The translations under genes and the position numbers were made by a program. From IMG/VR virus record IMGVR_UViG_3300021255_000070, positions 9,747 to 73,746 of that record: a stretch of 64,000 nt of DNA; one strand, given 5' to 3'. Under the pieces are notes generated by a model. It made no database searches, had not been told where the DNA came from, and worked only from the letters and a program-made list of their open reading frames with translations. Positions 840 through 64,000 of this stretch are shown one piece after another (the first letter of the stretch is position 1; the number at the start of each line of letters is the position of its first letter). The DNA is from a virus (Duplodnaviria; Caudoviricetes).

Positions 840-1565
840 ATGGATAATACAAATAATCTGACTATTGAAGATGTAAAAAGAGCTGTACCAGCTAAACTTA
901 AAGTAGCTATCAATCAGGATATAGTAGATAAGATTAATAACGTATCTAAAGACCCTGAACTGGCTAAATCTATTCAGGATAACTTTATTACTTATTCCTT
1001 GGTTCTAAGAGAAGGAAAATATAAAGTAGAAGATTATCTTAATGCTGTAACCTTCTGTACTTATAAAGTAATGGGTATGTCTAATGTAGATGCCTATATT
1101 AAAACCTTCCCTACAAGACATCAGATGTTATTAGCTAGAGGAGCCACTGAGAAAGATATATCCAGTTTCGTAGCTAATTACTTCAGAAATAAGATGGTAC
1201 AGTCTATCTTAGAAAAAACTATTATTCCATTCCATATACTGAATCAAGATGCTAGGCAGGAAGCTCTTAATACTCAGGTAAAGCTTATGATGACAGCTAA
1301 ATCTGAGATGGTAAGAATGAAAGCAGCAGATAGTGTTCTAGCTCACACAGAAGCTCCTACTGCTACCGGTCCTCTACTCAATGTAAACATTGGTAAGTCC
1401 TCTGCTATGGAAGATTTAGAGAGAACCATCACAGATTTAGCTAGAATACAGAAGAAAGCTATTGAAGATAATCTAGTCTCTACTAAAGATATTGCAGAGC
1501 AGAGAATTGTAGAAGCTGAAGTAATAGATTCTACTGATGAACCAGAGGAAGAAGATTATGAGTGA
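840..1565 (+). CDS. N4 gp69-like protein (possible terminase small subunit)
   Basis: 241 aa, immediately upstream of and overlapping the terminase large subunit, as in N4-like phages. Confidence 0.65.
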   Translation: MDNTNNLTIEDVKRAVPAKLKVAINQDIVDKINNVSKDPELAKSIQDNFITYSLVLREGKYKVEDYLNAVTFCTYKVMGMSNVDAYIKTFPTRHQMLLARGATEKDISSFVANYFRNKMVQSILEKTIIPFHILNQDARQEALNTQVKLMMTAKSEMVRMKAADSVLAHTEAPTATGPLLNVNIGKSSAMEDLERTITDLARIQKKAIEDNLVSTKDIAEQRIVEAEVIDSTDEPEEEDYE

Positions 1566-3150
1566 TGCTAAATCCTTAGATGAATGGTTAGATACTGTGG
1601 ACTACAGTAAGTATGAACATTATACTCCTAGTAAGTTTGCTCTTAAGTATCTTAACTTCTTAAAGCTTGTAAACGGAGCACAGGGAGAGAGTAATAAAAC
1701 TCCTCCTTTTCATCTTTATATGCTGGATAAACTTACATCCCCTAGTGAGTTTATAGTAAATCTCTGTTTCCGTGGTTCAGGTAAGACTTCCATTTATGCT
1801 GAGTATTTATTCTTTTTCTTGGCTCTATTTCCTAAAGTACCTTATCTAGGTGATATTTCTGTAGCATTATATATAGCTGATTCTATGGAGAATGGTGCTA
1901 AGAACCTTAGAAAGAATATGGAGCATAGATACTATAACTCTGAGTTCTTACAGAAATATTTACCTAAAGCTAAATGGACTGATACCTCTATAGAACTTAC
2001 CAATGCAGATGGTCATGATTTCTCTCTGAAAATGTATGGTGCATCTACTGGCTTTCGTGGTACTAAGACCTTTGGTAAAAGACCTAATCTTGTAATCTTA
2101 GATGATATTATTCCTGATGAGGCAGGTAGGTCTAAAACTCTTATGGATAATATTGAAGATATGCTGTATAACGCTGTTATACCTGCATTAGACCCATCTA
2201 AGAAAAAAGTAATTTTAAATGGTACCCCATTCTCAAAAGAAGATGTAGTGGTTAAAGCTGTTGAGTCTGGTTCTTGGGAAGTAAATGTATTCCCTATCTG
2301 TGAGAAGTTCCCTTGTGAAAAGAAAGATTTTAGAGGAGCTTGGGAAGACAGATTTCCATATGAGTATGTAGCTAAACAGTTTGAAGTATTTCAGTCTGTA
2401 GGTAAGACTGCCGGCTTCTATCAGGAATATATGCTGCGTATTAATTCAGCAGAAGAAAGATTAGTACAGGAATCAGAAATAAACTGGTATTCAAGACAGG
2501 ATCTACTAAAAGTAAAATCTAACTTCAATTTTTATGTTACTACTGACTTTGCTACTTCAGCCAAACAGAAAGCTGACTGGTCTGTTATTTCTGTATGGGC
2601 TTATAACAACAATGGTGACTGGTTCTGGGTAGATGGTATCTGTGAGAAACAGACTATGGATAAAAACATAGATGATTTATTTTCTTTGGTTCAGTTATAC
2701 CAGCCTGCTTCAGTAGGTGTAGAAGTAACAGGACAGCAGGGAGCCTTTATTAACTGGCTCCAGAGAGAAATGATGACTAGAAACATCTTCTTCTCATTTG
2801 CTAGGTCAGGTAAAAATAAGTCAACTGTAGGTATCAGACCCGAAACAGACAAACTCACTAGATTCAATCTTATGGTTCCATATTTTAAAATGGGTAAAAT
2901 ATTCTTTCCTGAAGAGCTTAAATCAACTAAAATTATGAATGAGTTCTTAGGAGAATTAGCTCTAGTTACTCGTAACGGAATCAAGGGGCATGATGACTGT
3001 ATAGATACTATATCTATGCTTGCCTATATGAATCCTTGGAAACCTTCGCTTAACTCAGAACCAACATATAACTCAGATAGTAATTACTATGGTTTTGATG
3101 AAACAGATTATATAGAGCAAGGTTCTAATATGGATTCATACATTGTATAA
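1558..3150 (+). CDS. terL: Terminase large subunit (N4 gp68-like)
   Basis: Walker A FRGSGKTS, Walker B LVILDD, nuclease motifs TTDFA and HDDCIDT; likely start ATG 1558 overlapping the upstream stop. Confidence 0.95.
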   Translation: MSDAKSLDEWLDTVDYSKYEHYTPSKFALKYLNFLKLVNGAQGESNKTPPFHLYMLDKLTSPSEFIVNLCFRGSGKTSIYAEYLFFFLALFPKVPYLGDISVALYIADSMENGAKNLRKNMEHRYYNSEFLQKYLPKAKWTDTSIELTNADGHDFSLKMYGASTGFRGTKTFGKRPNLVILDDIIPDEAGRSKTLMDNIEDMLYNAVIPALDPSKKKVILNGTPFSKEDVVVKAVESGSWEVNVFPICEKFPCEKKDFRGAWEDRFPYEYVAKQFEVFQSVGKTAGFYQEYMLRINSAEERLVQESEINWYSRQDLLKVKSNFNFYVTTDFATSAKQKADWSVISVWAYNNNGDWFWVDGICEKQTMDKNIDDLFSLVQLYQPASVGVEVTGQQGAFINWLQREMMTRNIFFSFARSGKNKSTVGIRPETDKLTRFNLMVPYFKMGKIFFPEELKSTKIMNEFLGELALVTRNGIKGHDDCIDTISMLAYMNPWKPSLNSEPTYNSDSNYYGFDETDYIEQGSNMDSYIV

Positions 3151-3159
3151 GGAGCTAAT

Positions 3160-3891
3160 ATGAAAACTACACAAGATTTCATTAAATCTCTAGGTCTAGG
3201 TACTTTAAAAAATCTTACTGGTTCAATAGTAGATACAGAGCATAATATTCTTGATAAAGCTATTCCTGAATTAATCCACTGGACTAATGAAGGACTGAAT
3301 ACTTTGCATACTATTCTTGAGATACCTGATAGTCTTACTATTCATATTTATGAATCTAGAGTAACTTATCCTTTACGTAGTGAATACAATATGACTGAAG
3401 AGGATTACTTCAGTGATAAACCAATCTATGAAAGGTTTATCTGGAAAGGTCGTAAAGAGGATGGCTCAGTAGAATACTTCAATGATAATCTGATGCAGAT
3501 TATTTCAGTATCTACTCATGAAGGATTAAAGCTTCCTCTTAATGACTACTCTAATGTATTCTCTGCATATACCCCTGAATTTGATGTACTACAGCTACCT
3601 ACCAATATGCCATCAGGTGTAGTGGAAGTACTGTATAGAGCTAAACATCCTGAAGTATCTTATGAAGATAATACTATTATCAGATTACCTCCTACTCTGT
3701 ATGATGCATTAGCTAACTATATAGCTTACAAAATTCACTCTACTATGAATGGAACAAATGCTGTAGAAAACGCAAATAAATACTATAATGAGTATAACAA
3801 TATAGTTGAAAATGCCATACGCACAGGAGTCATCAATCATAATGATTACCAACCTGACTTTGGTAAATTTTATAAAAGAGGGTTTGTATAA
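3160..3891 (+). CDS. N4 gp67-like virion structural protein (head-tail adaptor)
   Basis: 243 aa, syntenic position after TerL; YRAKHP...LPPTLYDALANYIAYK adaptor-like C-terminus. Confidence 0.7.
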   Translation: MKTTQDFIKSLGLGTLKNLTGSIVDTEHNILDKAIPELIHWTNEGLNTLHTILEIPDSLTIHIYESRVTYPLRSEYNMTEEDYFSDKPIYERFIWKGRKEDGSVEYFNDNLMQIISVSTHEGLKLPLNDYSNVFSAYTPEFDVLQLPTNMPSGVVEVLYRAKHPEVSYEDNTIIRLPPTLYDALANYIAYKIHSTMNGTNAVENANKYYNEYNNIVENAIRTGVINHNDYQPDFGKFYKRGFV

Positions 3892-3893
3892 TT

Positions 3894-5660: not shown

Positions 5661-5670
5661 GGAGTAGTAT

Positions 5671-6777
5671 ATGACTGAAGAAATCTTACCTAATATGAAT
5701 GATATTGGTAATAGACATATTACTACTGCTGAATTAGAAAGATATAGAGGTATTCCTAAACAGGTAGTTTGTATCAGTGATGATAAGAATAGGCTTGCTC
5801 TTTTATATGGTGATAGAGTAAATCACTATGAAAAGACAGTTCTATTCTCAGACCTTACAGAGAGTACTTTAGAAGCCTGCTTCAAATTACTCAAATATAC
5901 TTACCTAAGAAAGAACATTACAGAAGGTTCTTTTACCCTTAATACAGATTTATACTCTATATTTGATTTAACTCTTAATAGAGCTACCCAATTAAGCCTC
6001 GTATCCAGTGATACTTCAGAGAACCAAGCTAAAGAAGTAACTATTCTAGTATCAAATACTACTAACTCTTCTTTAAGCTTTACCAACTCTATTCGCTGGA
6101 TAGGTAAAGAGCCAGTATTCCCTACTGATACTGGTTCAAAGTATTTAATTAAACTCTACTATACTTCTACAGGTTGGATAGGTGAATACAGAACATCAAC
6201 TGATTTATCTGAAGACTCAGAAGATAGTTCCTTAATTAATATCAGTGAAGAAGATAGACAAATAATGTCAGATATTAGTCAGAACCTTGACGATATAAGA
6301 CAACTTGCAACTAATCTTACTAAACTAACTACTCTTGAAAATAGCATCGAAGACCTTAATGTAGTAAGTCAAAATACAACACAGTTAGTAAAACTGGCTG
6401 AAAGTATTAGTAAGCTTACCGAATTAAGCATATCATTAGATAGCGTATTACAGGTACAACAGTACCTAGATATGATTAAGCTTGTAGCTCATCATCTGAA
6501 AGATAAATACTTCCTAGATGTGAAAGTTACAAACCAAAAGATTGATGGTAATACTATTCTCCCTCTAGATAAGATTGTCTTGGCTCCTTGTGGATATATC
6601 CCTACTTCAGGTGGTAATTCACCAAGTGGTATAGATACTGATTCTAGTGATGGTACTATATCTCCTCAACTTCTAATCTGGTCAGATGAAGATGTTGATG
6701 ACACTATGGTAGGTGATGGTACTATTGTCGTAAGTCCAACCCGTAATAAGATTAATTCTGTAATTGTAAAGGAATAA
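5671..6777 (+). CDS. Putative tail fibre-associated structural protein
   Basis: 368 aa with the same heptad repeat type in its middle; within the tail cluster. Confidence 0.5.
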   Translation: MTEEILPNMNDIGNRHITTAELERYRGIPKQVVCISDDKNRLALLYGDRVNHYEKTVLFSDLTESTLEACFKLLKYTYLRKNITEGSFTLNTDLYSIFDLTLNRATQLSLVSSDTSENQAKEVTILVSNTTNSSLSFTNSIRWIGKEPVFPTDTGSKYLIKLYYTSTGWIGEYRTSTDLSEDSEDSSLINISEEDRQIMSDISQNLDDIRQLATNLTKLTTLENSIEDLNVVSQNTTQLVKLAESISKLTELSISLDSVLQVQQYLDMIKLVAHHLKDKYFLDVKVTNQKIDGNTILPLDKIVLAPCGYIPTSGGNSPSGIDTDSSDGTISPQLLIWSDEDVDDTMVGDGTIVVSPTRNKINSVIVKE

Positions 6778-6781: not shown

Positions 6782-7636
6782 ATGGCTATTGATAAGATTC
6801 AAGGTAACTTAAAAGTTCGTATTGGTGACAAAGTTGTTGAGTTAATTGGCTTAACTTCTGGTGATATTACTAACATCAATGCTGCTATTTCTGCTATTAA
6901 TAATTTATCTGTACTAGCTACTACTGGTGCTGCTGCTGACGTATCCGTAGCTGACGCTGCTGGTAAGTTTGAAGGCACTACTGTAGAAGCTGTACTTGCT
7001 GAGTTAGCAGACTTAGTAGGTGATGGTACTGATGCTGCCAAAATACACCTAGTAGATGCATCAGCAGGTCAGTCAGATTATGCTAAGGTATATGAGTTAT
7101 ATCAGGGTGCAGATGATTCTGATATGACTAAGAATACCAAAGTTGGTACCATTAATATTCCTCTGGATAAGGTATTACAATCAGGTAAAGTTGTAACCAT
7201 TACTTCTAATCAGGATACTGATGGTGATACTACTTCAGGTCTTGCAGATGGTAAGTATGTTAAGCTGGTTCTGCAAAATGTACCAAACCCTCTGTATATC
7301 AACGTACATGATTTAGTAGATGTATATACTACCAATAATCAGACTGCTGAAGTAACTGTATCTGTTGATGCTAATAACAACATTACTGCTACTATTGGTG
7401 AGGTATCAGCTACTAAGGTAGTTTATACTGAAGCTGATGCTCAGGCAGGTACTTCTAAAGAAACTGTAAAACAGGCTTTAGATCGCGTTGGTACTGCTTT
7501 AGATAACCTAGGTATTAAAGAGGTTACTGTAGTAAATACCTTTACTGCTGACGACCAAATGACCGATGGTGCTGTAGAGTTCTGTCAGAATACTGGTAAT
7601 ATTAGTGCTGTAACTTATACTGGTTCAAATAGCTAA
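6782..7636 (+). CDS. Putative virion/tail structural protein
   Basis: 284 aa Ala/Thr/Asp/Val-rich ORF with native codon style in the tail cluster. Confidence 0.5.
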   Translation: MAIDKIQGNLKVRIGDKVVELIGLTSGDITNINAAISAINNLSVLATTGAAADVSVADAAGKFEGTTVEAVLAELADLVGDGTDAAKIHLVDASAGQSDYAKVYELYQGADDSDMTKNTKVGTINIPLDKVLQSGKVVTITSNQDTDGDTTSGLADGKYVKLVLQNVPNPLYINVHDLVDVYTTNNQTAEVTVSVDANNNITATIGEVSATKVVYTEADAQAGTSKETVKQALDRVGTALDNLGIKEVTVVNTFTADDQMTDGAVEFCQNTGNISAVTYTGSNS

Positions 7637-12312: not shown

Positions 12313-12474
12313 ATATGAAAATATATTTTGTTACCTACCTCTCATTTATCCTTGGTTCACTAATCTTTTAAACCTTCTAAAGATAGCCTAATTTCTATAG
12401 TAATATCCGTCACACTAATCTTATTGAATCCTCTCTAAACTAAATATGTAAATTCATTTAAAGGAGGATTTACT

Positions 12475-14023: not shown

Positions 14024-14144
14024 TCTTGCTAAACAGGAGGCTTTTAAATTATACTTAACAGGTAAACTCAGTAAAGCAATGGTAATTAATATATGTACTG
14101 GTATTATTAGTGCTTATCTTGCTGGTTCAGAAAATAAGAAATAA
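13950..14144 (+). CDS. Small hypothetical protein
   Basis: 64 aa; overlaps the previous ORF; stop codon overlaps the tRNA-Gln 5' end. Confidence 0.5.
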   Translation: MEQQLLQEIEEQVSQTNQSPQEKYSLAKQEAFKLYLTGKLSKAMVINICTGIISAYLAGSENKK

Positions 14145-14216
14145 GGATGTAGTGTAATGGTAACACCGGAGGTTTTGATCCTCCTATTCTAGGTTCGAGC
14201 CCTAGCATCCTTGCCA
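14143..14216 (+). tRNA. tRNA-Gln (anticodon TTG)
   Basis: Acceptor AAGGATG/CATCCTT, anticodon stem GGAGG/CCTCC with loop TTTTGAT, T-loop GTTCGA, encoded CCA. Confidence 0.92.
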
Positions 14217-14230: not shown

Positions 14231-14431
14231 ATGAAAGTCCTTGGTTCATATACTAAAGGACTTAGTATGTTTGATATAAATCAGTTAATGATTGAAATAA
14301 ATACTTTCTTCTTTGAGTATAACAAGTACGTACATGGAAATAAGATAGCCGGAAGAAGAGCTAGAAAAGCGAGTATAAGAATAGAAAAGTTATTATTAAA
14401 CTATAGATTAGAATCTCTTAATAAAATATAA
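14231..14431 (+). CDS. Histone H1-like (Hc1-family) nucleoid protein
   Basis: GNKIAGRRARKASIRIEKLL matches the Hc1-type GNKAAG.RARK motif. Confidence 0.75.
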   Translation: MKVLGSYTKGLSMFDINQLMIEINTFFFEYNKYVHGNKIAGRRARKASIRIEKLLLNYRLESLNKI

Positions 14432-14455
14432 GAAAGCCCCTTTCAGGGGCTTTCT
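14431..14455. terminator. Bidirectional terminator between convergent genes
   Basis: AGAAAGCCCCT-TTC-AGGGGCTTTCT flanked by A/T tracts. Confidence 0.85.
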
Positions 14456-14458
14456 TAT

Positions 14459-14677
14459 TTATTTAGGTAAGGTTTCTTTCTGATATTCTATAGAAGTCTT
14501 TATATATTCTGTTAGCATAGCTTTTAAAAGTCTAGCTTGTTTTCTTAAAACAATACCATATTTTTTATTACAATGATGTTTCTTTGTTGGTTCCTGAAAT
14601 AACTTACAGGAATCCTTGAAAGCATTTGTTAGATGTTCAATATCATAATCTAATCTTTCTAGTTTAGCATTTGACAT
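14459..14677 (-). CDS. Second, divergent Hc1-like protein
   Basis: 72 aa; CNKKYGIVLRKQARLLKAMLTEYIKTSI aligns with the Hc1 helix of the convergent gene. Confidence 0.55.
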   Translation of the reverse strand: MSNAKLERLDYDIEHLTNAFKDSCKLFQEPTKKHHCNKKYGIVLRKQARLLKAMLTEYIKTSIEYQKETLPK

Positions 14678-45018: not shown

Positions 45019-45747
45019 TTAACTCCTATAGTAGTTATTTAAGTGATCTAACAAGATTTGACAATCATTATCCATAAAGGTCTGACTCTTATTGAATAGA
45101 CCCATAGGACTTCTGATTCTGGTATTAACAGTGTCTTTAGTTACACGAGTCTGGAAGACATATTTAAATCCTAAATCTTCCTCTTCTTCAGAAATATTTA
45201 ATAAATCTGATTTATAGTCCTTTAGTTTAACTAAAGGCATTTTCTGAGAATAAACAATAGTAGAGAAATATGCTTCAATACCTGTGCCTTTTAAAGCACC
45301 CTTTACAGGAACTGAGGTCTTAGTTTCAAGTGTCTTTTCATCATAAGTATCTGCAATATGAGCTATGAATATAACTGGTTTACCAAATTTAATAACTCTA
45401 TCTTGTAAGATAGATTTAAAGAATTGATTATATTCACTCCATGCTTTCATGGTATTGGTAGCTGTTAATACATATTGAGATTCATACATCTCCATTAAGA
45501 AGGTAAGTGAATCTACAATAATACCTTCACAGTTTGGGTCTTCAGCTCCATGATCGAATGCTTCAAATATCTGCATTGGATCTTCTAATCTGAATTCCCT
45601 AAAATTAGACTTGAAAGGCAACTTCTTACCTGCTTCAGTATTAAGATAATACCATTTTTCTTGGTTCCTGATATTTCTTAAACTAGCTGACTTACCTGAA
45701 CCAGATAAGCCACCTATTAGAATGAGCTGATCATTAGTATCACTCAT
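45019..45747 (-). CDS. AAA-family ATPase (N4 gp44-like)
   Basis: Walker A GLSGSGKS, IIVDSLTF, VIFIAH, IEAYFSTIV. Confidence 0.88.
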   Translation of the reverse strand: MSDTNDQLILIGGLSGSGKSASLRNIRNQEKWYYLNTEAGKKLPFKSNFREFRLEDPMQIFEAFDHGAEDPNCEGIIVDSLTFLMEMYESQYVLTATNTMKAWSEYNQFFKSILQDRVIKFGKPVIFIAHIADTYDEKTLETKTSVPVKGALKGTGIEAYFSTIVYSQKMPLVKLKDYKSDLLNISEEEEDLGFKYVFQTRVTKDTVNTRIRSPMGLFNKSQTFMDNDCQILLDHLNNYYRS

Positions 45748-47938
45748 TGGTTCTATCTCCTATTTTCTTAGCTGCGGTTTTTAGACATGTATTAGCTAAC
45801 TCCTCTTCTGGTAGAGGGTTAGGTAATCTTTTATTAAATCCCTTAACAAGTTTTTCAACATCTTCTAAAGATTTACCTGAGTCTACAAGAGCCATAGTAT
45901 ATCTAAGCATATAGTTATTTCTATTGCCTACATCCATCTTCTGGATGAACCATCTCTCTAAAGCACCTAGGTCTGCAAGTTTCTTGTCCTTGAACTGTTT
46001 ATTATAAATATCATTACTTCTACTTCCCGGAATAAATGGAAGTACATTGAACAGTTTTCCCTGATGGTCAAGAACAATACCTTTAGGATTGGTTTCCCAT
46101 TTATGAGAAATATCCTTAACCATCTCATCACAGGTAAAAGGTAAATAAGTAAGTATATTAGACATAAATTGGCTAAATTCTTCCTTATTTAATTCTAATT
46201 CATGTGACATTGGAATTAAGATACGGTATCTATTCTGTTCAGTAGTATGACGCTTGGTTGTATAGATAATATAGGAATAATCCTCTAGGATATTCTGAGC
46301 CAAGGTAATAGGTGTACCGTCATCTATATCTAGAATAATAGTATTAAATCTACCTATTACATCTTCATTACATCTATGACCATTACCATTTACTTCGCAA
46401 GCAAAGTGATGATTACAGAAATGCAATGGTTCTCCTGCTTTATCAGGAGATTCCATGGTTCCTAATCGTTTCAGATTATCCCAAGAGAGTTCATCGTTAT
46501 AATAATTAAAAGCAAAGTCAGTACTGTAACTAATAATACTGCTATCACCTGAACTGTTGTTTAACTGCTTACCACTTAAGAACTCAATATCATCATTATA
46601 TCTGGATGTAATAAGAATATTATGATCTAGTCCCCAAGCTTTAGCTAAAGACAGCATATCTTTCTTATTAGAACTTCCCTTAAAGAAGGGTAATTCTTCT
46701 ACAATTTCTGCATGAGTTACTTCATGAGTCTGTTCACTAATAAATTTAGCTAACTTCATATGAGGTAGGTCTCTAGTAAGAATCTTAGTGAAAGCATTAC
46801 CTGATTCTTCTACTAGCTTGATTGCTTGGTTCAAATGAGTTTCAGTAATATCTGGACTTACATCTACGAAAGCAAATGCACCTGCTAGTTTAAGAGCTTT
46901 AAAATATCTATTAGATACTTCAGTTTTCTGCAATAGCTGAGATGCTTTAAACTTCTCTGCTTTCTCTTCACATTCCATCTTATATTCCTGTAACTTAATA
47001 CCTATATCATCAGGTAGATTTACAGAATAGTTATACATATTCTGGTCTGCAAGAGAAGCAAAGTGTGATGACCATTTAGCAGCTATAGCATCATTCTGAG
47101 GGTCACATAAATCATCATAGATTTCTTTAGGAGTTCTATTCTGATAATTGATAGAAGATGTATTCTTACCCATACAGAATAGAGTTCTTCTAGCATATCC
47201 TGTTCTTAGATAAGCATAGAAGTTATCTTCTATGGTTCCACCATCTAGCAGAGCATATGGCTCTCCAAATAACAGCATATTAGCTGGAGTAGAACCATCC
47301 AAGTCTTCACCTCTGGATGAACTGTCTGTATTCTTAGTTAATTTCTGCTTGGTAAAGCCTTTATCAAATAGTTCTAAGAACATATTTAAGGCTTCCCCTG
47401 AATCTGTAAGATTCATGCCAATCTCATCAATCTGTAGATTAATAGAACCAATGCCTGCCATTAACAGTTTCTGTCTCATTTGCTTAATAGCTGGTCCGGT
47501 AGCAGAATCAAAAGTAAATAAATAAGAACCAAGTTTATTATATTCTTGGGTTATTAATTTAATTTCTTCTGCTTGACTGGTATGATTATTAACAGATCTA
47601 GTAGTAGCCATATCTGCAAGATGCTTTTGTGCAAATGCCGGCATAGTATCCTGTAGAAAAGCTACTCGGAAGTCTCTGATAATATTCTCTTCCATAAAAT
47701 TAACACTAAAATTCTTACCATAACCTGAAGGAGCCAAGGCTAATACATAAGTATTAATTGGTATGGTTCCTAAGTGTTTGGTAACAATATTAGCTCGCAT
47801 ACAGGCTGCCATCTTGCCGATATAATAGGTAACGATGGTTCTGAAGAAAGCCTTATCTGTACTCTGTTTCTTTTTACAGAGTACATCAGTTATTTCTTCA
47901 ATAGGCTGAAAATGCTGAACTGTACTTAAATCAATCAT
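45740..47938 (-). CDS. DNA primase (N4 gp43-like, primase with PriCT-like C-terminus)
   Basis: LAPSGYGKN P-loop, ILDIDDG, YTTKRH, RYRILIP, GNRNNYMLRY. Confidence 0.88.
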   Translation of the reverse strand: MIDLSTVQHFQPIEEITDVLCKKKQSTDKAFFRTIVTYYIGKMAACMRANIVTKHLGTIPINTYVLALAPSGYGKNFSVNFMEENIIRDFRVAFLQDTMPAFAQKHLADMATTRSVNNHTSQAEEIKLITQEYNKLGSYLFTFDSATGPAIKQMRQKLLMAGIGSINLQIDEIGMNLTDSGEALNMFLELFDKGFTKQKLTKNTDSSSRGEDLDGSTPANMLLFGEPYALLDGGTIEDNFYAYLRTGYARRTLFCMGKNTSSINYQNRTPKEIYDDLCDPQNDAIAAKWSSHFASLADQNMYNYSVNLPDDIGIKLQEYKMECEEKAEKFKASQLLQKTEVSNRYFKALKLAGAFAFVDVSPDITETHLNQAIKLVEESGNAFTKILTRDLPHMKLAKFISEQTHEVTHAEIVEELPFFKGSSNKKDMLSLAKAWGLDHNILITSRYNDDIEFLSGKQLNNSSGDSSIISYSTDFAFNYYNDELSWDNLKRLGTMESPDKAGEPLHFCNHHFACEVNGNGHRCNEDVIGRFNTIILDIDDGTPITLAQNILEDYSYIIYTTKRHTTEQNRYRILIPMSHELELNKEEFSQFMSNILTYLPFTCDEMVKDISHKWETNPKGIVLDHQGKLFNVLPFIPGSRSNDIYNKQFKDKKLADLGALERWFIQKMDVGNRNNYMLRYTMALVDSGKSLEDVEKLVKGFNKRLPNPLPEEELANTCLKTAAKKIGDRTNE

Positions 47939-48887
47939 TAAAGTATTGTCTCCTTTGCTGACATATAGGTGCAGCAGGGCATAGCTTACATCTCTTTACT
48001 TCACCCTTTACTTCTCTAACTACACCTTTACCTTTCTCTAAACAAAACTTATTAGCTTCTGCTAATGAGTCAAAGTTCTTTGTAGCTTTAGAAGCAGTAG
48101 GATTTGCATAGTATTTATACTTAGTATCACTACGCCATAATTCTTCATCAGTACACTCAGGAATGTCTTCTTCTTTAGCATCCCAGTACTTAGTAATAAG
48201 AGCTAGTTTCTCTTTAATCCATTTTTCTGTTTCAGGAATAGATAATAGAGGGTAATCCTTATACATAATCTTATGCTGAGGATAATCTTTATTAGTTAGA
48301 GCCAAGGCATTCTGCCAATCTGTAAAGATAAAACAGATACGTACAAAGTCAGAGGTTACTTTGTCTTGGTTCAACCATCTATAAATACTTCCCTGTAATC
48401 TATACTTTTCATCCATACCACCATATACCCATGTATATGCTGAAGTAGATTTAAAGTCATGTAGAATACCATCACCTATATAATCAAACTTACCACCTAT
48501 CTTGTAACCATCTATTTCTTTAATAGAACGCTGTTCAATATAGACAGGTATCTGACCATCTTCTACCTTTTCAGGATTGATAACTATTTTATCGGCTACA
48601 GATTTATTAAAGCCTAGAAACTCAAGAGTCTTTCTGTAATCACTATAGAGCCAAGCCTTCTCAATACCATCATGGATACTGGTTCCCATAACAGCAGGTA
48701 CAAAGCTGGATATGTCAGTAGTAATGAAATTATCATTTACTCTTGGTCTTAAGATAAGTTGTTTGAGGGGATTAAGTAACTGAGTAGCTGAGATATACTT
48801 CTCATCTTGAATATGGTCATATTCATCATGAGCTAGCCATACTTGTAATGGTAAAGGTATATCCCACTCATTTGTTAAGTTCATCAA
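47931..48887 (-). CDS. PD-(D/E)XK exonuclease (N4 gp42-like)
   Basis: ISATQLL, GTSIHDGIE, GGKFDYI...HDFKSTS, C-terminal CxxC...C cluster. Confidence 0.85.
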   Translation of the reverse strand: MMNLTNEWDIPLPLQVWLAHDEYDHIQDEKYISATQLLNPLKQLILRPRVNDNFITTDISSFVPAVMGTSIHDGIEKAWLYSDYRKTLEFLGFNKSVADKIVINPEKVEDGQIPVYIEQRSIKEIDGYKIGGKFDYIGDGILHDFKSTSAYTWVYGGMDEKYRLQGSIYRWLNQDKVTSDFVRICFIFTDWQNALALTNKDYPQHKIMYKDYPLLSIPETEKWIKEKLALITKYWDAKEEDIPECTDEELWRSDTKYKYYANPTASKATKNFDSLAEANKFCLEKGKGVVREVKGEVKRCKLCPAAPICQQRRQYFND

Positions 48888-51412: not shown

Positions 51413-51811
51413 TTATTCTTCCTTTACCTTTTCAAGGTATTTAAAACTCTTTTCAATAGGATATCTTAATGGTGGATATTCAAAGCCTTTAGAATAAGGC
51501 ATACCTATTTCTAAAGTAACTTTTGTACCATCATTTTTAATTACCATAATTTGATATTTAGATAATTGTTCAAAAAGTTTATAAATACATAACATCCTTT
51601 CATAGCAAACATTTAAATATTCAAATTCATAAGTCATATTGAATAAGTAATATTCTTTATTATCTGTATATATGTAAGTTTCCTGAGTTAGTAATCCATC
51701 ATCTGCAACTGATTTAAATGCATATTTATAAGCACTTCTGTTAGCTTTACCTTTATGAATTACTTCTTTGAACTCATCTTTAGGAACCAACATATAAATT
51801 TTACAGTTCAT
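51413..51811 (-). CDS. Hypothetical protein (within the polymerase interruption)
   Basis: 132 aa; start overlaps the stop of the polymerase N-terminal gene. Confidence 0.7.
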   Translation of the reverse strand: MNCKIYMLVPKDEFKEVIHKGKANRSAYKYAFKSVADDGLLTQETYIYTDNKEYYLFNMTYEFEYLNVCYERMLCIYKLFEQLSKYQIMVIKNDGTKVTLEIGMPYSKGFEYPPLRYPIEKSFKYLEKVKEE

Positions 51812-53732: not shown

Positions 53733-54238
53733 ACTAATAACTCATATGCTTCATACTGATTAATACGAGGAATTATAATTTCTTCATAAAACTTTTTTAA
53801 GTTATCTTTTATTTCTGGTTCAGATTCTCTTACCCACTGAGGTACTATCTTTTTGATAAAAGAATCAAAGATACTAGGCAGATTATTGAACATCTCTCCA
53901 TTATCTTTTGAACCAAAGCATTGGGAAGCAATGAAGGTAGTAATAAACTTTCTATCCTGTTCAATGGTTTCTTTGGTTTTCTTGTACTGTTCTAGTTTAT
54001 CTACAAGGGCTAAATTTAAAGTACAAAGATTGTTCTTATCATGACTGAAGTTAAGAGAAGGATTGAAATAGCAATAACCTCTAAATTTAAATCCATAAGA
54101 GACTACTGTCTGTTCATTATTCAATTCAGAATTCTGTTTGATTAATTTAGTAAGATAAGTATTTAGATATTTCTTAGGATTCTTAAAGATGCTATCAATC
54201 AATTCTTCTCTAGTATCATAGATTGAATATTTACTCAT
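53729..54238 (-). CDS. N4 gp38-like hypothetical protein
   Basis: 169 aa between helicase and polymerase; GFKFRG motif. Confidence 0.6.
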   Translation of the reverse strand: MSKYSIYDTREELIDSIFKNPKKYLNTYLTKLIKQNSELNNEQTVVSYGFKFRGYCYFNPSLNFSHDKNNLCTLNLALVDKLEQYKKTKETIEQDRKFITTFIASQCFGSKDNGEMFNNLPSIFDSFIKKIVPQWVRESEPEIKDNLKKFYEEIIIPRINQYEAYELLV

Positions 54239-55530
54239 AAAATACTCCCAAATTTTTTAGCTAGAGAACCATAGAAATATACTTTATGTCTGGCTCTGGT
54301 ACAGGCAACATAAAGCAGTCTATAGAAGGTATCTGGATTTCTACAGGTAGATAGATTATCTAAGTCGATAAGTACTGTATCTACAGTAGCTCCTTGTGCT
54401 TTGTGTACTGTGCAGGCATCTGCATAACGTAAATCTGCTACATAATCTTTCAACTGATAATAATGAGTCCAGTCTTTATCTTTGGCTAAGATTTTTAAAG
54501 CCTGCCTCTTATCAAGAGAATTAACAGGTAGAATAAGAGGAACAGTATTACCATTGGTAAGACATAATCCCTGTGCTCTTATAATAGGAAATTTAATATT
54601 GGTTTCTTTACCTGTTATTTCTAGTTTTTCTTGCATTGGTTCAACATCTATCAAATCTACTACATCTTCTGTGTGTAGAATTAACATACCGTCTTTACCA
54701 TGTAAGACATTATTGGCTATTAATCTCTGACCTTTATAGAATGGTTCTGTATGCCCTCTTACTTCTGAATGGATATATGAATTATAGGCAATACAGCAGT
54801 TATTGGTATAACAGCAAATCTTATTGTTATTCTGTGGCTGGATAAAATTATTATTTAAATAAGTAAAAGTATTCTCTTTAGTCAGAACTTCAATAGTATC
54901 TTTTACAGTATTTATAGTAACAGTTTTATTATCTATAGCATCTTTACATCTTTGAGCCAAGTCAGTTAATGCTTGGTTCTGCTGCCGCATAAAGGTTTTT
55001 AGAGGTATTTCCTGATAGTTCTGTTTATATACCTGAGATATGGTTTCTCTTACAGGAGCTAATTGATATTTATCTCCTACATAGATAATTTTACAGGTAG
55101 AACAGCACTGTTGGATATATTTAAATAATTCCCAGTTAATCATTGAAGCTTCATCAATGATAATAACTTCATTGAATATAATAGATGTTTTATCTGTAGT
55201 AGCTAGTTTCTCTTCTCCAGTCTTATAATCTTCAGTAACTCTAAGACCTAAGAAAGAGTGAATAGTAGGAACATCTTCATGAACCAGTAAGCCTAGAGAT
55301 TCACAGGCTTTATTGGTAGTAGATGTAATTCTGATATTATTATATTTGACAGGTAATCCAAATAGACTGCATAAGTCTCTGTATTCTTTAAGAAGGTTCT
55401 TTTTAAGTTCATTAATTAAATAACTTTTACCTGTACCTCCTGAACCATCAATAATAATAGCTGGTTCATCTGTAGTTAAGAATGTTACTATTTTATTCAT
55501 AGCATCATTCTGTTCTTGGTTGAGTGACAT
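54235..55530 (-). CDS. SF1B (Dda/RecD-like) DNA helicase
   Basis: GSGGTGKS, IIDEASMI, GDKYQLAPV, TVHKAQG, YVACTRAR. Confidence 0.93.
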   Translation of the reverse strand: MSLNQEQNDAMNKIVTFLTTDEPAIIIDGSGGTGKSYLINELKKNLLKEYRDLCSLFGLPVKYNNIRITSTTNKACESLGLLVHEDVPTIHSFLGLRVTEDYKTGEEKLATTDKTSIIFNEVIIIDEASMINWELFKYIQQCCSTCKIIYVGDKYQLAPVRETISQVYKQNYQEIPLKTFMRQQNQALTDLAQRCKDAIDNKTVTINTVKDTIEVLTKENTFTYLNNNFIQPQNNNKICCYTNNCCIAYNSYIHSEVRGHTEPFYKGQRLIANNVLHGKDGMLILHTEDVVDLIDVEPMQEKLEITGKETNIKFPIIRAQGLCLTNGNTVPLILPVNSLDKRQALKILAKDKDWTHYYQLKDYVADLRYADACTVHKAQGATVDTVLIDLDNLSTCRNPDTFYRLLYVACTRARHKVYFYGSLAKKFGSIL

Positions 55531-57605: not shown

Positions 57606-57679
57606 AGGTGCTTAGTTCAATGGTAGAATCAGGGATTCCAAATCCCAAGATAGAGGTTCGATTCCTTTAGCTCCTGCCA
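57606..57679 (+). tRNA. tRNA-Trp (anticodon CCA)
   Basis: Acceptor AGGTGCT/AGCTCCT (one mismatch), loop TTCCAAA, T-loop GTTCGAT, G73 plus CCA. Confidence 0.9.
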
Positions 57680-57683: not shown

Positions 57684-57773
57684 GGAATAGTGCCTGAGTG
57701 GTTTAAAGGAACAGTCTACTAAACTGTCGGGGTAGTAATACCTCCGTTGGTTCAAATCCAACCTATTCCACCA
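57684..57773 (+). tRNA. tRNA-Ser with anticodon ACT (type II, long variable arm)
   Basis: Acceptor GGAATAG/CTATTCC, stem ACAGT/ACTGT with loop CTACTAA, variable arm GGGGTA-GTAA-TACCTC, T-arm GTTGG-TTCAAAT-CCAAC, CCA end. Confidence 0.88.
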
Positions 57774-57906
57774 TCTATTGAATTTCTTTTCTTGGTTCTA
57801 TATAATTGATTTGTAATCTTGAATAACGAAATGAAGAGTTAGGGTAGAGAGTGGTTTAATAAAACTGCTGTAGTTTGTATATGGTTGCTCTCTACCCTCC
57901 TTATTC

Positions 57907-58955: not shown

Positions 58956-59268
58956 TTTCTATCTCCCATATTGCATAAGGATGCTCTGAATCAAGTATTA
59001 TTCCTTGTGTAGTAATATACGTAAGAGTATATCTACCTAATTTTATATAACCACATGAGTCAAGTAGATTAATTCTCTTTTCAATATTAGGTTCTTTTGC
59101 ATAAATAATTAATTTATCTATTAGGTGGGAATTTACTTTATAAACATTACCCATTGCAGGATGTGAATAACTAGGAGGTTCATATACTGCAAATATATAT
59201 TCCTTATCTGGTTCAAGATATAATGGTATTCTAGGTTTTTTAGGAAATAATGGTATAGTTAATTTCAT
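58933..59268 (-). CDS. Hypothetical protein
   Basis: 111 aa, ATGA overlap with the upstream gene. Confidence 0.65.
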   Translation of the reverse strand: MKLTIPLFPKKPRIPLYLEPDKEYIFAVYEPPSYSHPAMGNVYKVNSHLIDKLIIYAKEPNIEKRINLLDSCGYIKLGRYTLTYITTQGIILDSEHPYAIWEIENEIKDIS

Positions 59269-59459
59269 TCCTCTAATTCCTCAAATACAACTCTCTGTCT
59301 TAACTCTTTAAATTTTTCTTCTAATTCTTTATACCAATGTGCTCTTTTAATTGTTTCAGAATCCATCATTTCTTGTCTTGCATTATATATAGCATTATCA
59401 AATATACTTGATAGAGTTTCTCTATCTTCTTCATTGACTTTAATCTTTATCAAGTTCAT
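59265..59459 (-). CDS. Small hypothetical protein
   Basis: 64 aa, ATGA overlaps on both sides. Confidence 0.65.
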   Translation of the reverse strand: MNLIKIKVNEEDRETLSSIFDNAIYNARQEMMDSETIKRAHWYKELEEKFKELRQRVVFEELEE

Positions 59460-59665
59460 TCTTCTACCTCAATGTGTAAATAAGCTTCATCAGTGTCAAA
59501 CCAACAAACTCGTATAGTTTTTACTGTTTTATCTTTTATTTTTCTATCTAAAAGAATTTTATCGTTAAGATAATCATGCTTATACCCAAGATATTCCTCT
59601 TCACCACAAGTAACAAAGATATATTCTGTTTCAGGAATAAACTTTAGTTGTTCTTCTAATGTCAT
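59456..59665 (-). CDS. Small hypothetical protein
   Basis: 69 aa, ATGA overlaps. Confidence 0.65.
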   Translation of the reverse strand: MTLEEQLKFIPETEYIFVTCGEEEYLGYKHDYLNDKILLDRKIKDKTVKTIRVCWFDTDEAYLHIEVEE

Positions 59666-59886
59666 TCTTCCACTCCCAATTTCTTTAAAAGTTCATTACA
59701 TCTGTCTATGGTTTCTTCTGCTTCTTTGATTTGTTTTTTCTGCACCTTTACACAAATACTGCCACAGCCAATTTGTTCTAAAACATGCTTACTTTCTGAA
59801 TATAATATACTTGCATACTTTCTTTCATCTTTAACCAAGTCTATAAGTAATTTAGTTTCAGCATCCGTTAATGTTATTTTTGTCAT
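59662..59886 (-). CDS. Small hypothetical protein
   Basis: 74 aa, SD-like GGAG/AGGA. Confidence 0.65.
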   Translation of the reverse strand: MTKITLTDAETKLLIDLVKDERKYASILYSESKHVLEQIGCGSICVKVQKKQIKEAEETIDRCNELLKKLGVEE

Positions 59887-59904
59887 TCCTTCACTCCAAA
59901 ATAT

Positions 59905-60108
59905 TTATTGACCATATGGAGTAGGTTCAATTACAACCTTGTATTTACACTCAACCATGCCAGTTTTTAAATTCACTTTTTTGGTTGATAAATCTGCCTC
60001 TACACTGATTTTAGAAATATCTGCATAATGATTATTTCTTGATATGATTTTTACATCTACATCAGGACTATATTTTTTTAGTTCATCTATTAACTGTTTA
60101 ACTTTCAT
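59905..60108 (-). CDS. Small hypothetical protein
   Basis: Likely start MKVKQLIDELKKY at 60108, overlapping the upstream stop. Confidence 0.65.
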   Translation of the reverse strand: MKVKQLIDELKKYSPDVDVKIISRNNHYADISKISVEADLSTKKVNLKTGMVECKYKVVIEPTPYGQ

Positions 60109-60616
60109 TTTCCAGAACTCCAAAAGGTTTCCACTCGTTATCATCTTTATACTCATAATTAAATAATTCATTTAGATTAAATGATGTGTCACCGATTGTT
60201 ATATAATCTGTCTTATCACCAGACGTACAAAAATCAGTTATAACTCCGTAACCTGTCGATACAATGCTTCCATTAGAAGTAAGTCTATAATGAACTATGT
60301 GCAATAAATCTAAACCAGTTTTGTTCTTAAATTCATCAATACTCCTAAAAGGTCTCCACTTCTTTTCTTCAACTTCTTTTACTTTTTCTGCTGGAAGAAA
60401 AAAACTATAATTTATTTTTCCATAAGAAGAATAATTCACCGTAAAACATTCCGAATTATCAGGATCTATTTCTCCAAGTATTTCAATAATGTTTCTTTCT
60501 ACATAGTTTTTAAGTGCCTCAATAGTATCAGCAAAATATCCTTCTTTGCCTATATACTTTTCGGCTTCATCATGGTTATACCAACTGATAATGTCTTCCA
60601 TATTAAATGTTTTCAT
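60098..60616 (-). CDS. Hypothetical protein, paralog family member 1
   Basis: YIGKEGYFADTI...RPFRSIDE...YEY..W.PFGV shared with 60620-61141 and 62448-62939. Confidence 0.8.
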   Translation of the reverse strand: MKTFNMEDIISWYNHDEAEKYIGKEGYFADTIEALKNYVERNIIEILGEIDPDNSECFTVNYSSYGKINYSFFLPAEKVKEVEEKKWRPFRSIDEFKNKTGLDLLHIVHYRLTSNGSIVSTGYGVITDFCTSGDKTDYITIGDTSFNLNELFNYEYKDDNEWKPFGVLENES

Positions 60617-60619
60617 ACT

Positions 60620-61141
60620 CTATTCCTCAATTCCGAATGGTAGCCAGGTCTCACCTTCGTCTTTACTGTACTCATAACTGTCTAATAAGTCCGATGCTTC
60701 TATATAGTCATTGCCTAAAACTATACTGAGAAATTTCCCCTTCTCTAGTCCAATCGCTGTTACTATTACACTATACCAATTATCGTTATTCTTAAACCTG
60801 AATGTAACCATGTTACCAAGAGAAAGCCCCGCTGCATGTAGCTCATTCATAGTGTTGAATGGTCTTAACTGTTTCTTTATCTTATGAACTTTATCAGCAG
60901 GTACACACAGTGCATAAGCATCTGTTGTGCAGTCATCCCTATGCACATTAAAACGTAACTCACAAAGGTTACTATTAATACCCTCTAAGGTATGGGTAAA
61001 GCCTTCTTTAATCTGTTGCTCTAAAGCTGTAATAGAATTGGCAACATATACCTCTTTACCAGTATATTCCACAGCTTGATCTGCTGTAATTGCAGTGAAT
61101 ATATTATCCTTATCTACCATATCAAATAGATTTGTTTTCAT
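60620..61141 (-). CDS. Hypothetical protein, paralog family member 2
   Basis: YTGKEVYVANSI...RPFNTMNE...YEY...WLPFGI. Confidence 0.8.
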   Translation of the reverse strand: MKTNLFDMVDKDNIFTAITADQAVEYTGKEVYVANSITALEQQIKEGFTHTLEGINSNLCELRFNVHRDDCTTDAYALCVPADKVHKIKKQLRPFNTMNELHAAGLSLGNMVTFRFKNNDNWYSVIVTAIGLEKGKFLSIVLGNDYIEASDLLDSYEYSKDEGETWLPFGIEE

Positions 61142-61143
61142 TT

Positions 61144-61401
61144 TTACCTCGTATAAGTTATAAAATCACATATGCCACAAAATGCAAATAGAAGAATAAT
61201 GATTATTAAAAATGCAAGTGCTAATAACCATATAGGAGCTAACGTATAAAATAAAGCTGCCCACCATGAAACTGATTTATCGTATAAATCATCTAGGTCA
61301 TGTTTGTTTTCTATTATCTTAGCTACTATGAAAACTATTAGACCAATAAGTACACTGATTACTGAAATGGTTTCTAAAATTACAAATGTAGAATGTTCCA
61401 T
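61144..61401 (-). CDS. Hypothetical two-TM membrane protein
   Basis: 85 aa, two hydrophobic helices. Confidence 0.65.
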   Translation of the reverse strand: MEHSTFVILETISVISVLIGLIVFIVAKIIENKHDLDDLYDKSVSWWAALFYTLAPIWLLALAFLIIIILLFAFCGICDFITYTR

Positions 61402-61429
61402 TTTATTAGACCTATGTTATAATCTCCTC

Positions 61430-61542
61430 ATAGGTTAAAAGGCTCGTTGGCTAGATCGCGTAAGTGCTGACCTTGTGTAATACCATAGTGGGAGTGCGCG
61501 CTTTAAACATTATGTCATTACATAGTAAACCTCTTAACCTAT
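61430..61542 (-). ncRNA. Candidate structured RNA/cis-regulatory element
   Basis: 13-bp closing stem ATAGGTTAAGAGG/CCTTTTAACCTAT (G-U only on the - strand) enclosing a GC-richer core with internal hairpins; intergenic. Confidence 0.45.
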
Positions 61543-61551
61543 ATCCTTTTA

Positions 61552-61806
61552 TTATTCTTCAGACTTCCATTCCTTTTTCTCAAGTGTGTAATTAAAGAAA
61601 ACTCTTGCAAATGTAATTAAGAAATCTGCATCTACTTCAGTATATTTAGTAGCTTCTTTTTTAGTACCCCATTGCAATGAAGGTATATCAGCTGATCCAA
61701 CAGGTGTACCAGTATGTGCTCTATACTTATTACATAAATACATTTTGTCTTTAGGTACACCCGGTTGGTTTCTTTTCAAACAATATAATACTGGTATTGG
61801 TTCCAT
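61552..61806 (-). CDS. Hypothetical protein
   Basis: 84 aa, SD AGGAGG. Confidence 0.7.
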   Translation of the reverse strand: MEPIPVLYCLKRNQPGVPKDKMYLCNKYRAHTGTPVGSADIPSLQWGTKKEATKYTEVDADFLITFARVFFNYTLEKKEWKSEE

Positions 61807-62951: not shown

Positions 62952-62987
62952 AAAAAAAAAAAAATACCCTAGACTAAGCTAGGGTAT
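62952..62987 (-). terminator. Intrinsic terminator
   Basis: ATACCCTAG/CTAGGGTAT stem followed by a 13-U tract on the - strand. Confidence 0.85.
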
Positions 62988-63013
62988 AAGACGTTAAGTA
63001 TATGAACACTAAA

Positions 63014-63244: not shown

Positions 63245-63271
63245 TTCTTGGTTCTCTATACATAAATACTT

Positions 63272-63418
63272 TCATGCATAGTATGAACCAATAACTGCAA
63301 ATATTCCAAATGCTAAACAAGAAATAGTAATCCAGCCAAAGATTTCAGTGAACTTAATCTTTAGCTTTAGTCTTTTTATTTCTTTTTCTATATCTAGTTT
63401 CTTATTTTTCTTCTTCAT
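63272..63418 (-). CDS. Small basic/TM protein (48 aa, not in the ORF track)
   Basis: MKKKNKKLDIEKEIKRLKLKIKFTEIFGWITISCLAFGIFAVIGSYYA; overlaps the upstream stop region. Confidence 0.5.
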   Translation of the reverse strand: MKKKNKKLDIEKEIKRLKLKIKFTEIFGWITISCLAFGIFAVIGSYYA

Positions 63419-63677
63419 TTGTTAGTCCGTCAATAATAATGTTCTGATTTGCTGATATAGCTTCTACTTTGCCGTCAGGTGAGGAGATATCTATCATACC
63501 TTCTGGTGTGATATAAATACGGCATACAGATGGGAAATGTTTCTTATGTTGTTTAGTATTGGTATTGTCAGGTTTAGCTAATAATGAATTAGTGGCTACA
63601 GAATAGCCTATAAGAAAGGAAGAAGCAAAACCTGTAATTATTATTAAATATAAAAATCCATATTTTATTTTAAGCAT
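63402..63677 (-). CDS. Hypothetical membrane-anchored protein
   Basis: 91 aa, N-terminal TM, SD AGGAG. Confidence 0.65.
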   Translation of the reverse strand: MLKIKYGFLYLIIITGFASSFLIGYSVATNSLLAKPDNTNTKQHKKHFPSVCRIYITPEGMIDISSPDGKVEAISANQNIIIDGLTNEEEK

Positions 63678-63728
63678 AAAAAGCTCCTGTTCAGGTAAAT
63701 AACCCGAAACAGGAGATGGAAGATAAAG

Positions 63729-64000
63729 CTACTCTATGACACATTCATCAGGTATGAATTTTCTATACTGGTTCCAGCCTCTGAAGTTGGAATGGAGGTA
63801 ACCACCTTCAGGAGCTGGAGTAGCTATATGCTCAAAAGCAGACATATGCTTATTCTCTTTGAGCTTCTTGGCAAGCTCTAGGTCTTTCTCTATAGTAGAA
63901 GAACCATCAAAAGCCTTATAGCTTACTCTGGCACATCTAGCTACAGAAATATCTTTTAATGTATCTATATCTAAGGTATCTTTTTCTTCTTGGTTCACAT
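63729..64000 (-). CDS. thyX: FAD-dependent thymidylate synthase-like protein, C-terminal part (cut by the window edge)
   Basis: SVARCARVSY and HMSAFEH motifs; N4 gp30 position; the frame runs to the window end. Confidence 0.8.
   Translation of the reverse strand, partial: VNQEEKDTLDIDTLKDISVARCARVSYKAFDGSSTIEKDLELAKKLKENKHMSAFEHIATPAPEGGYLHSNFRGWNQYRKFIPDECVIE

Follow-up and report, generated by a model that had tools for sequence, protein, structure and literature searches.

Which factor reads a short word that recurs on both strands throughout the genome of a bacteriophage from the ruminant gut, and does the word serve the phage or its host? The DNA examined here, referred to as the window, is a stretch of 64,000 nucleotides that spans bases 9747-73746 of a 73,746-bp virus record (IMGVR_UViG_3300021255_000070), the assembly of which carries a 107-bp terminal repeat. 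The phage, found in gut metagenomes of sheep, goat and cattle, matches coliphage N4 in gene content and gene order and is an N4-like member of the Schitoviridae with a 73.7-kb genome and a guanine plus cytosine (GC) content of 33%. A preliminary description of this DNA had noticed an excess of the octamer CTTGGTTC and had ascribed it to selection for binding or modification by a host or phage protein, with host-directed signals and a pair of Hc1-like proteins among the possibilities. We report that the signal resides in the hexamer TGGTTC/GAACCA, that this word is a trait of the phage family and that it is conserved site by site in distant relatives.

A dispersed hexamer is the unit of the signal

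The octamer CTTGGTTC is present in the window in 44 exact copies (30 on the + strand and 14 on the - strand), compared with 1.42 +/- 1.2 copies and a maximum of 5 in dinucleotide-preserving shuffles of the window. The enrichment reported in the preliminary description is therefore real and was slightly undercounted there (28 and 12 copies), and all the positions that it gave for copies are confirmed, beginning with the first at 998..1005 (+ strand, exact match). Its two intergenic examples, at 12351..12358 and 57791..57798 (both on the + strand), are likewise intergenic by open reading frame (ORF) calls, the latter lying directly after a pair of tRNA genes. This pair consists of tRNA-Ser with anticodon ACT (57684-57773, + strand, identified with ARAGORN) and the adjoining tRNA-Trp (57606-57679).

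The octamer is enriched but is not the core of the signal. TGGTTC/GAACCA occurs 202 times in the window (131 copies on the + strand and 71 on the - strand), or 3.2 times per kb, in agreement with the earlier estimate of about 3, whereas the dinucleotide shuffles contain 19.2 +/- 4.3 copies over both strands. In the whole 73.7-kb genome there are 245 copies, approximately tenfold the expectation. Words of equal composition are not similarly abundant, since the other 59 hexamers with the same letters have a genome median of 20 copies and the runners-up among them overlap the motif. The ratio of observed to expected copies is 9.9 for TGGTTC, 5.2 for TGGCTC and 2.8 for TGCTTC, and the remaining single-letter variants lie between 0.2 and 1.7. 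The unit of the signal is thus the hexamer TGGTTC/GAACCA, with TGGCTC (57 copies in the window versus 17.3 expected) as a weaker variant and the octamer CTTGGTTC as an extended form. Taken together as TGGYTC/GARCCA, the 202 and 57 sites are dispersed over both strands from 274 to 63996 at about one site per 250 bp. Preferences in the flanks are weak: G is disfavoured before and after TGGTTC and CT tends to precede it. The window also holds 9 + 6 copies of CTTGGCTC/GAGCCAAG. A separate excess was seen for the rare GC-rich word CCGGGA/TCCCGG, which has 8 copies in the coding DNA of the genome versus 0.8 in shuffles that permute synonymous codons (z 9.2).

The word is maintained at the level of DNA

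To separate a signal in the DNA from codon usage, we permuted synonymous codons within each gene, which preserves both the protein sequence and the codon usage. Against these codon shuffles, GAACCA/TGGTTC ranks first of 2080 hexamers, with 215 copies in coding DNA versus 74, a 2.9-fold excess with z 22-24. Counted per strand, 154 copies are observed versus 69.6 and 91 versus 35.4 (z approximately 15 for each), which bears out the earlier view that codon usage alone is insufficient. The excess is found in five of the six reading frames and is missing only in the frame that forces Trp-Phe. The densest class of all is intergenic DNA, in which 31 sites fall within 5.5 kb where 1.8 are expected, and the same holds for intergenic sites in relatives (15 versus 2.1 in N4, and 21 versus 2.9 in Sinorhizobium phage ort11). 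Sense and antisense copies are about equally frequent in genes (112 and 103), which argues against a role of the word at the RNA level. Site density is 3.6 per kb in conserved core genes and 2.6 per kb in genes without a homologue in other N4-like phages. The word is no mere consequence of codon usage but is kept in place by selection on the DNA itself, and the factor that reads it is very probably encoded by the phage.

The word is a trait of the phage family

Whole genomes were then compared by the rank of GAACCA among hexamers and by its z over codon shuffles. GAACCA ranks first in this phage (z 22-24), in coliphage N4 (z 21.5-23.6; 206 copies versus 72) and in ort11 (z 15.9), and also in three metagenomic N4-like genomes of widely different composition, designated G001 (28% GC, z 16.8), G002 (54% GC, z 14.6) and G003 (55% GC, z 11.4). 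It ranks second in the N4-like genome G004 (z 8.6), in Roseophage DSS3phi2, which infects Ruegeria (z 9.9), and in Pseudomonas syringae phage inbricus (z 9.0), ninth in the distant IMG/VR N4-like genome G005 (z 5.0) and 336th in Vibrio phage VBP47 (z 1.5). The portal-gene loci of nearer relatives show an excess of the word regardless of their GC content. In G005 the top hexamers are TACCTA (z 9.8) and ACCTAC (z 8.2), and a different word, GTAGGTA, may be enriched there.

Coliphages outside the family do not share this enrichment: over codon shuffles GAACCA has z 2.2 in T7, 0.7 in lambda and 1.1 in T1 (range 0.4-2.3), and the strongest hexamer of any kind in these three phages reaches z 6-10 only. 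Nor is the word enriched in a 50-kb sample of Escherichia coli K-12, where 20 copies are found versus 24 expected (z -1.6); N4 is about eightfold denser in the word than this sample of its host. The word is a trait of the phage family rather than of the host, and it crosses host phyla.

Sites are conserved individually and the word shifts between lineages

Conservation was assessed in twelve orthologous core genes from six genomes, at approximately 40-60% protein identity, by scoring sites that occupy the same codon column in the same orientation. Genome pairs share a site in 119 cases, compared with 23.2 +/- 5.1 in codon shuffles, so that conservation at synonymous sites in relatives, which the preliminary description had proposed as a check, is borne out; 21 codon columns carry a site in at least three genomes. 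Conserved examples encode Trp-Phe, Leu-Gly-Ser, Leu-Val-Gln and Asn-Gln, and they persist amid differing neighbouring codons and widely differing GC content. In a comparison with two strains that are 91-93% identical to this phage, changes at motif positions number 6 versus 9.8 expected, which is not significant, and none of the 40 strain differences listed, of approximately 1290, falls in a motif site, a number too small for statistical power.

The first letter of the word differs between lineages. In the Pseudomonas phages LIT1 and LUZ7 (Migulavirinae) the enriched hexamers are AAGCCA (z 18.5 and 16.6, respectively) and AAACCA (z 9.7 and 14.1), and GAACCA is unremarkable (z 0.8 and 1.2), whereas this phage and N4 prefer GAACCA (z 23.6 in both) followed by GAGCCA (z 10.6 and 5.5, respectively). 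G004 and DSS3phi2 accept either G or A as the first letter. Phage inbricus, which also has a Pseudomonas host, prefers GAACCA (z 9) and avoids AAACCA (z -3.1). From these sequences the family consensus reads as 5'-RARCCA-3'/5'-TGGYTY-3', in which the last five letters are common and the first is set by the lineage. Correspondingly, the pentamer AACCA/TGGTT ranks between 1 and 11 of 512 in 11 of 13 Schitoviridae; this set includes Acinetobacter phage Presley and G005, though no single hexamer is prominent in either. The pentamer is unremarkable in VBP47, T7, lambda and T1. Inheritance of the word with the phage, and its one-letter drift between lineages, imply that its reader is encoded by the phage.

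Strand polarity and arrangement of the sites

The record is reversed and circularly permuted relative to the N4 map, and we therefore describe polarity in the orientation of that map, with the top strand carrying the early genes at the left. In each of the nine genomes examined, TGGTTC favours the bottom strand, by 1.4-2.1 to 1, and does so in genes of either orientation. The bottom:top counts are 154:91 in this phage, 130:90 in N4, 145:78 in ort11, 91:44 in G001, 94:68 in G002, 80:44 in G003, 69:43 in G004, 50:33 in G005 and 54:29 in inbricus. In the window this appears as an excess on the + strand irrespective of gene direction (77:44 in + genes and 44:22 in - genes), as had been noted for the two oppositely coded halves, and no switch of polarity was detected along the genome in 5- or 10-kb bins. 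The bias is real but partly reflects a general skew in strand composition: control hexamers with the same letters likewise favour the bottom strand, at 0.9-1.3 to 1, and the motif exceeds this background 1.2-2.0-fold in the same direction.

At four-fold degenerate sites, with the effect of the coding strand removed, the top strand has more A than T in 13 of 13 N4-like phages and more C than G in 10 of 13. This asymmetry is family-wide and suggests a process that runs mainly in one direction, such as replication. As a rule, keto bases are more abundant on the strand that is more often exposed in single-stranded form, namely the lagging-strand template. The TGGTTC-rich strand is also G+T-rich at synonymous sites, which fits its serving more often as the lagging-strand template. 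The opposite assignment, with GAACCA as the template word and forks moving rightward from the early end, was dropped, given that the four-fold skew places TGGTTC on the keto-rich strand.

Genome-wide, the sites show neither clustering nor an excess of close pairs, and inverted pairs capable of forming hairpins are not in excess (10 and 9 versus 6.7). An exception to the latter is a set of four perfect hairpins in the early region, 1.2-3.2 kb before the window, which lie at the ends of early genes (positions 6536-6563, 7483-7507, 7993-8015 and 8519-8544 of the record) and have stems made of the extended word, either GAACCAAG...CTTGGTTC or GAACCAAAG...CTTTGGTTC. The longest stretch of the window free of TGGTTC/GAACCA, 59215..61797 (2589 bp), is a run of small - strand ORFs with an intergenic element at 61411-61542.

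The gp43 primase-helicase as candidate reader

We tentatively favour the view, by analogy with other primases, that the phage primase-helicase preferentially starts primers at these sites. This enzyme, the homologue of N4 gp43, is encoded at 45740..47938 on the - strand and shares 45% identity with the N4 protein. It has a DUF3987 helicase domain at residues 40-377 and a PriCT_1 domain at 667-717 (Pfam), matches phrog_2135 'DNA primase' over its whole length (E 4e-273) and contains conserved IDVD and TTKRH motifs; its C-terminal half resembles the PriCT_1, PriCT_2 and BT4734-like primase clusters of the ESM Atlas. Sequence searches of the PDB with gp43 and gp42 gave no usable matches, and NCBIfam returned nothing for either. 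A primase of the gp43 type is encoded in every N4-like genome compared and, in the phage collection, is confined to N4-like phages (469 records), with none found outside the Schitoviridae. Primases, as in T7 and T4, recognise a short word in the template, one with a cryptic 3' base, and the primers that they make have purines at the start; in the archaeo-eukaryotic primase of pRN1 a helix-bundle domain confers template specificity. We propose a primase because the word is short and non-palindromic, has a conserved core with a variable end letter and a complement that begins with a purine, and resembles the T7 site. Provisionally, and again by analogy, the primase may be the function common to all enriched genomes whose known logic matches this anatomy.

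Under this proposal, the template 5'-TGGYT-3' on single-stranded DNA would be copied into the primer pppARCCA, and the enzyme would recognise the sixth letter without copying it, as a 'cryptic' base, which is C in the N4 clade, T in the Migulavirinae and either in some other members. At 33% GC, chance alone would supply a six-letter site on each strand only about every 3 kb, and selection for frequent priming of the lagging strand would therefore increase the density, in this phage to one per 300-800 bp per strand.

Several points weigh against assigning the word to gp43. The link between the two rests on analogy, and any other conserved core protein of N4-like phages would give the same phylogenetic pattern. 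Comparison of gene presence and absence with enrichment makes no candidate stand out, as the shared genes are core genes that are also present in weakly enriched and unenriched members; no word is enriched in Vibrio phage VBP47, even though it encodes a gp43 homologue. Six fully specified positions exceed the needs of most primases, and the enrichment of the T7 site is far weaker, at 1.4-fold over shuffles versus 2.9-fold here. The argument from polarity is weak, since control hexamers already lean to the bottom strand, and spacing is near random and only slightly regular, with a single-strand coefficient of variation of about 0.86 versus 0.98. Finally, an AlphaFold model of the C-terminal half of gp43, built from a six-sequence alignment, has a mean predicted local distance difference test (pLDDT) score of 50, which leaves the fold unconfirmed, with only the terminal helical bundle somewhat confident.

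Alternative explanations

It is unlikely, though worth setting out, that the word is a phage-encoded Chi-like signal, which a phage helicase-nuclease would recognise on single-stranded DNA. Possible components are the RecD/Dda-like superfamily 1B (SF1B) helicase homologous to N4 gp37 (54235..55530, - strand, assigned by homology and profile matches), together with the exonuclease homologous to N4 gp42 (47931..48884, - strand, 52% identity, phrog_2139 exonuclease), a Sak4-like annealase and the protein that binds single-stranded DNA (SSB); such a system would limit degradation of the phage DNA or trigger recombination-dependent replication, the word marking phage DNA as 'self'. The length of six nucleotides, the over-representation, the non-palindromic form and the modest, uniform polarity all recall bacterial Chi, the RecD-like helicase, exonuclease and Sak4-like protein adjoin the primase in all enriched genomes, and one database record names the gp42 homologue a RecB-family exonuclease. 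The word is also 8-10 times denser in phage than in host DNA, with no enrichment in the E. coli sample, and its major orientation would face an enzyme that enters at the left end, which is injected first (PMC4496689). However, gp42 and gp37 are separate small proteins, and profile searches detected no RecC/AddB-like reading domain. We know of no phage-encoded nuclease that reads Chi. The polarity lacks a switch along the genome and barely rises above the background skew, and the conserved five-letter core with its variable end letter carries no special meaning in a Chi-like model. We consider it similarly improbable that the sites are bound by a phage protein specific for double-stranded DNA, which would condense, package, shield or mark the genome or guide a motor during injection or packaging. 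No candidate with a sequence-specific DNA-binding domain was found among the core genes, the sites show no clustering or excess of close pairs, as noted above, and the polarity is far below that of motor-orienting sequences such as the FtsK orienting polar sequences (KOPS). In favour of such a protein are the sharp six-letter specificity with enrichment in both orientations, which is typical of protein-binding sites, and the density that peaks in unconstrained intergenic DNA; moreover, entry of the right half of the N4 genome is unexplained by known transcription units (PMC4496689). The convergent pair of small genes at 14231..14677 (both strands), whose + gene is Hc1-like (Pfam Hc1, E 6e-9, for 14231-14431), had been suggested as such a protein. 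The Hc1-like proteins of this phage are lineage-specific, and the pair is rejected as the reader because its genes have no homologue in N4, ort11 or G001-G005.

The word might also have no function and accumulate through biased mutation or repair by the phage replication machinery, or through codon-pair or amino-acid preferences. Codon and amino-acid usage does carry part of the excess, since shuffles that keep both contain approximately 74 copies versus about 25 expected from base composition, and in every frame the word consists of codons that are often preferred (GGT, GTT, TTC, GAA, AAC and ACC). For iterated words such as the cyanobacterial highly iterated palindrome (HIP1), repair bias has been suggested as a partial origin. 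We nevertheless regard this explanation as very unlikely in view of the 2.9-fold excess over codon shuffles with z above 20, the 7- to 17-fold intergenic excess, the retention of sites at synonymous positions across deep divergence, the occurrence of the same word at 28% and 55% GC, the one-letter shift between subfamilies within one host genus, and the lack of enrichment in T7, lambda and T1, which share the host of N4. The part of the earlier proposal that invoked selection holds, and a phage protein is the most economical reader, but its host-directed forms, namely Chi mimicry against RecBCD/AddAB and phosphorothioate self-marking by Dnd (GAAC/GTTC) or Ssp (CCA), are largely refuted and we give them scarcely any weight. 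GAACCA does contain both GAAC and CCA, and the extended form CTGGTTC in N4 has CTGGT in common with the E. coli Chi sequence GCTGGTGG. Yet the same word ranks first or second in phages of E. coli, Sinorhizobium, Ruegeria, Pseudomonas syringae and the rumen, and this identity across unrelated hosts leaves mimicry of a host Chi unsupported, as do its variation by phage lineage within one host genus and its lack of enrichment in E. coli (20 versus 24 copies) and in T7, lambda and T1. The signal requires each of the six positions: where GAAC or CCA is preserved and another letter altered, the word is not enriched, and since GAACCT, GAACCG and GAACCC lie at 0.5-1.2 times expectation, Dnd or Ssp marking is unsupported. 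It would also be of no obvious benefit to a phage to multiply the targets of host modification or defence. Three further kinds of site were considered and set aside. A restriction-modification target is expected to be avoided, whereas this word is the most over-represented hexamer; a DNA uptake sequence does not accord with a word that is unenriched in the E. coli sample and crosses host classes; and the known transcription signals of N4 do not correspond to a word that is found on both strands genome-wide with no preference for the sense strand. In N4, the early promoters of the virion RNA polymerase (vRNAP) are hairpins at the left end, the middle promoters of RNAPII, which have an AT-rich segment between -7 and +2, are found in the left half only, and the late promoters serve one strand only (PMC4496689). 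Whatever probability these readings leave belongs to something else.

Genome context

The true ends of the genome probably lie near positions 1-378 of the window. The 9.7 kb that precede the window encode both RNAPII subunits and small early genes. Within the window, the + strand carries the genes for the terminase, portal, major capsid protein and virion RNA polymerase, and the - strand those for SSB, the Sak4-like protein, the gp43-type primase, the gp42-type exonuclease, a split DNA polymerase and the RecD/Dda-like helicase. The portal has at best approximately 60% identity to that of named phages, and a metagenome scan for intermediate relatives yielded two short contigs. The virion RNA polymerase (30783-43424, + strand) has 4213 amino acids, about 700 more than that of N4, to which it is approximately 25% identical. 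The DNA polymerase is encoded in two parts on the - strand, at 48868-49590 and 51801-53732, which both match N4 gp39 (61% and 50% identity, respectively), and five small ORFs without homologues in other N4-like phages lie between them. A tRNA-Gln gene is located at 14143-14216.

Implications and comparison with known systems

N4 has a long history as a model phage, and its relatives, which are commonly found in marine, soil and gut habitats, are under development for therapy. Full-text searches for the word, for over-represented oligonucleotides in N4-like phages and for a primase site of N4 gave no relevant result, although they did not cover the subscription literature on N4, in which an older mention is possible. 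The conserved but shifting hexamer points to an unrecognised sequence-reading step in N4-like replication or recombination, which is directly testable in N4 and E. coli and would explain part of the codon usage of these phages. On balance we are evenly divided over a fuller account, in which a Schitoviridae 'self' word, RARCCA/TGGYTY, has altered the choice of codons and of some amino acids, as well as the intergenic DNA, across the whole genome and is read by a phage enzyme whose specificity drifts between subfamilies. If the reader is gp43, it would apparently be the first primase to recognise six letters at sites kept dense by selection across the whole genome, and the family would offer a natural series of enzymes with altered template specificity; if it is a helicase-nuclease, this would be the first phage-encoded Chi-like system that distinguishes phage from host DNA. 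In practice, the word provides a simple signature for spotting N4-like contigs and their subfamilies in metagenomes, and caution is advisable in recoding or engineering N4-like phages, as needed sites may be deleted.

The bacterial Chi sequences read by RecBCD and AddAB are likewise over-represented, non-palindromic words of 5-8 nucleotides that are dispersed, polar and partly embedded in preferred codons and that act as a mark of 'self'. However, Chi is host-specific and enriched in the host chromosome, whereas the phage word tracks the phage lineage and is unenriched in E. coli. KOPS and the SpoIIIE recognition sequences (SRS) resemble it as dispersed polar words that keep a constant orientation over long distances. 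KOPS have a skew of approximately 80% or more and switch at a defined point, whereas the skew of the phage word is only 58-67%, without a switch point, and both of its orientations are enriched 7-12-fold. Uptake signal sequences and DNA uptake sequences (USS/DUS), as well as HIP1 of cyanobacteria and their phages, share with it the very high density of a short word in coding and non-coding DNA, but they are features of host genomes that phages inherit or copy, and HIP1 is palindromic, whereas the present word is phage-specific.

The template sites of the T7 primase, 5'-TGGTC/GGGTC/GTGTC-3', which direct synthesis of the primers pppACCA, ACCC and ACAC and in which the C is cryptic, resemble the phage word in being short and non-palindromic and in having a complement that starts with a purine, and under the primase proposal the word would, like them, be read on single-stranded DNA and have a pyrimidine as its cryptic 3' base; indeed, TGGTC and TGGTTC differ by a single T. 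In T7 only one of the 512 pentamers exceeds the strong site TGGTC/GACCA in over-representation (z 6.4 over codon shuffles for this site), although the strand-specific scores of the site reach z 3-4 only, and by analogy this enrichment may be taken as a modest precedent. The T7 enzyme is a zinc-finger/Toprim primase, whereas gp43 seems to combine a DUF3987 helicase with a primase of archaeo-eukaryotic type that carries PriCT_1, and the word is enriched approximately tenfold in this phage compared with about 1.4-fold in T7, with six specified positions and a putative use by gp43. Dispersed, over-represented polar words are thus already known as a kind, from Chi and KOPS to uptake sequences and primase sites; what is new here is a word that is specific to a phage family, crosses host phyla, is conserved site by site and exists in subfamily variants.

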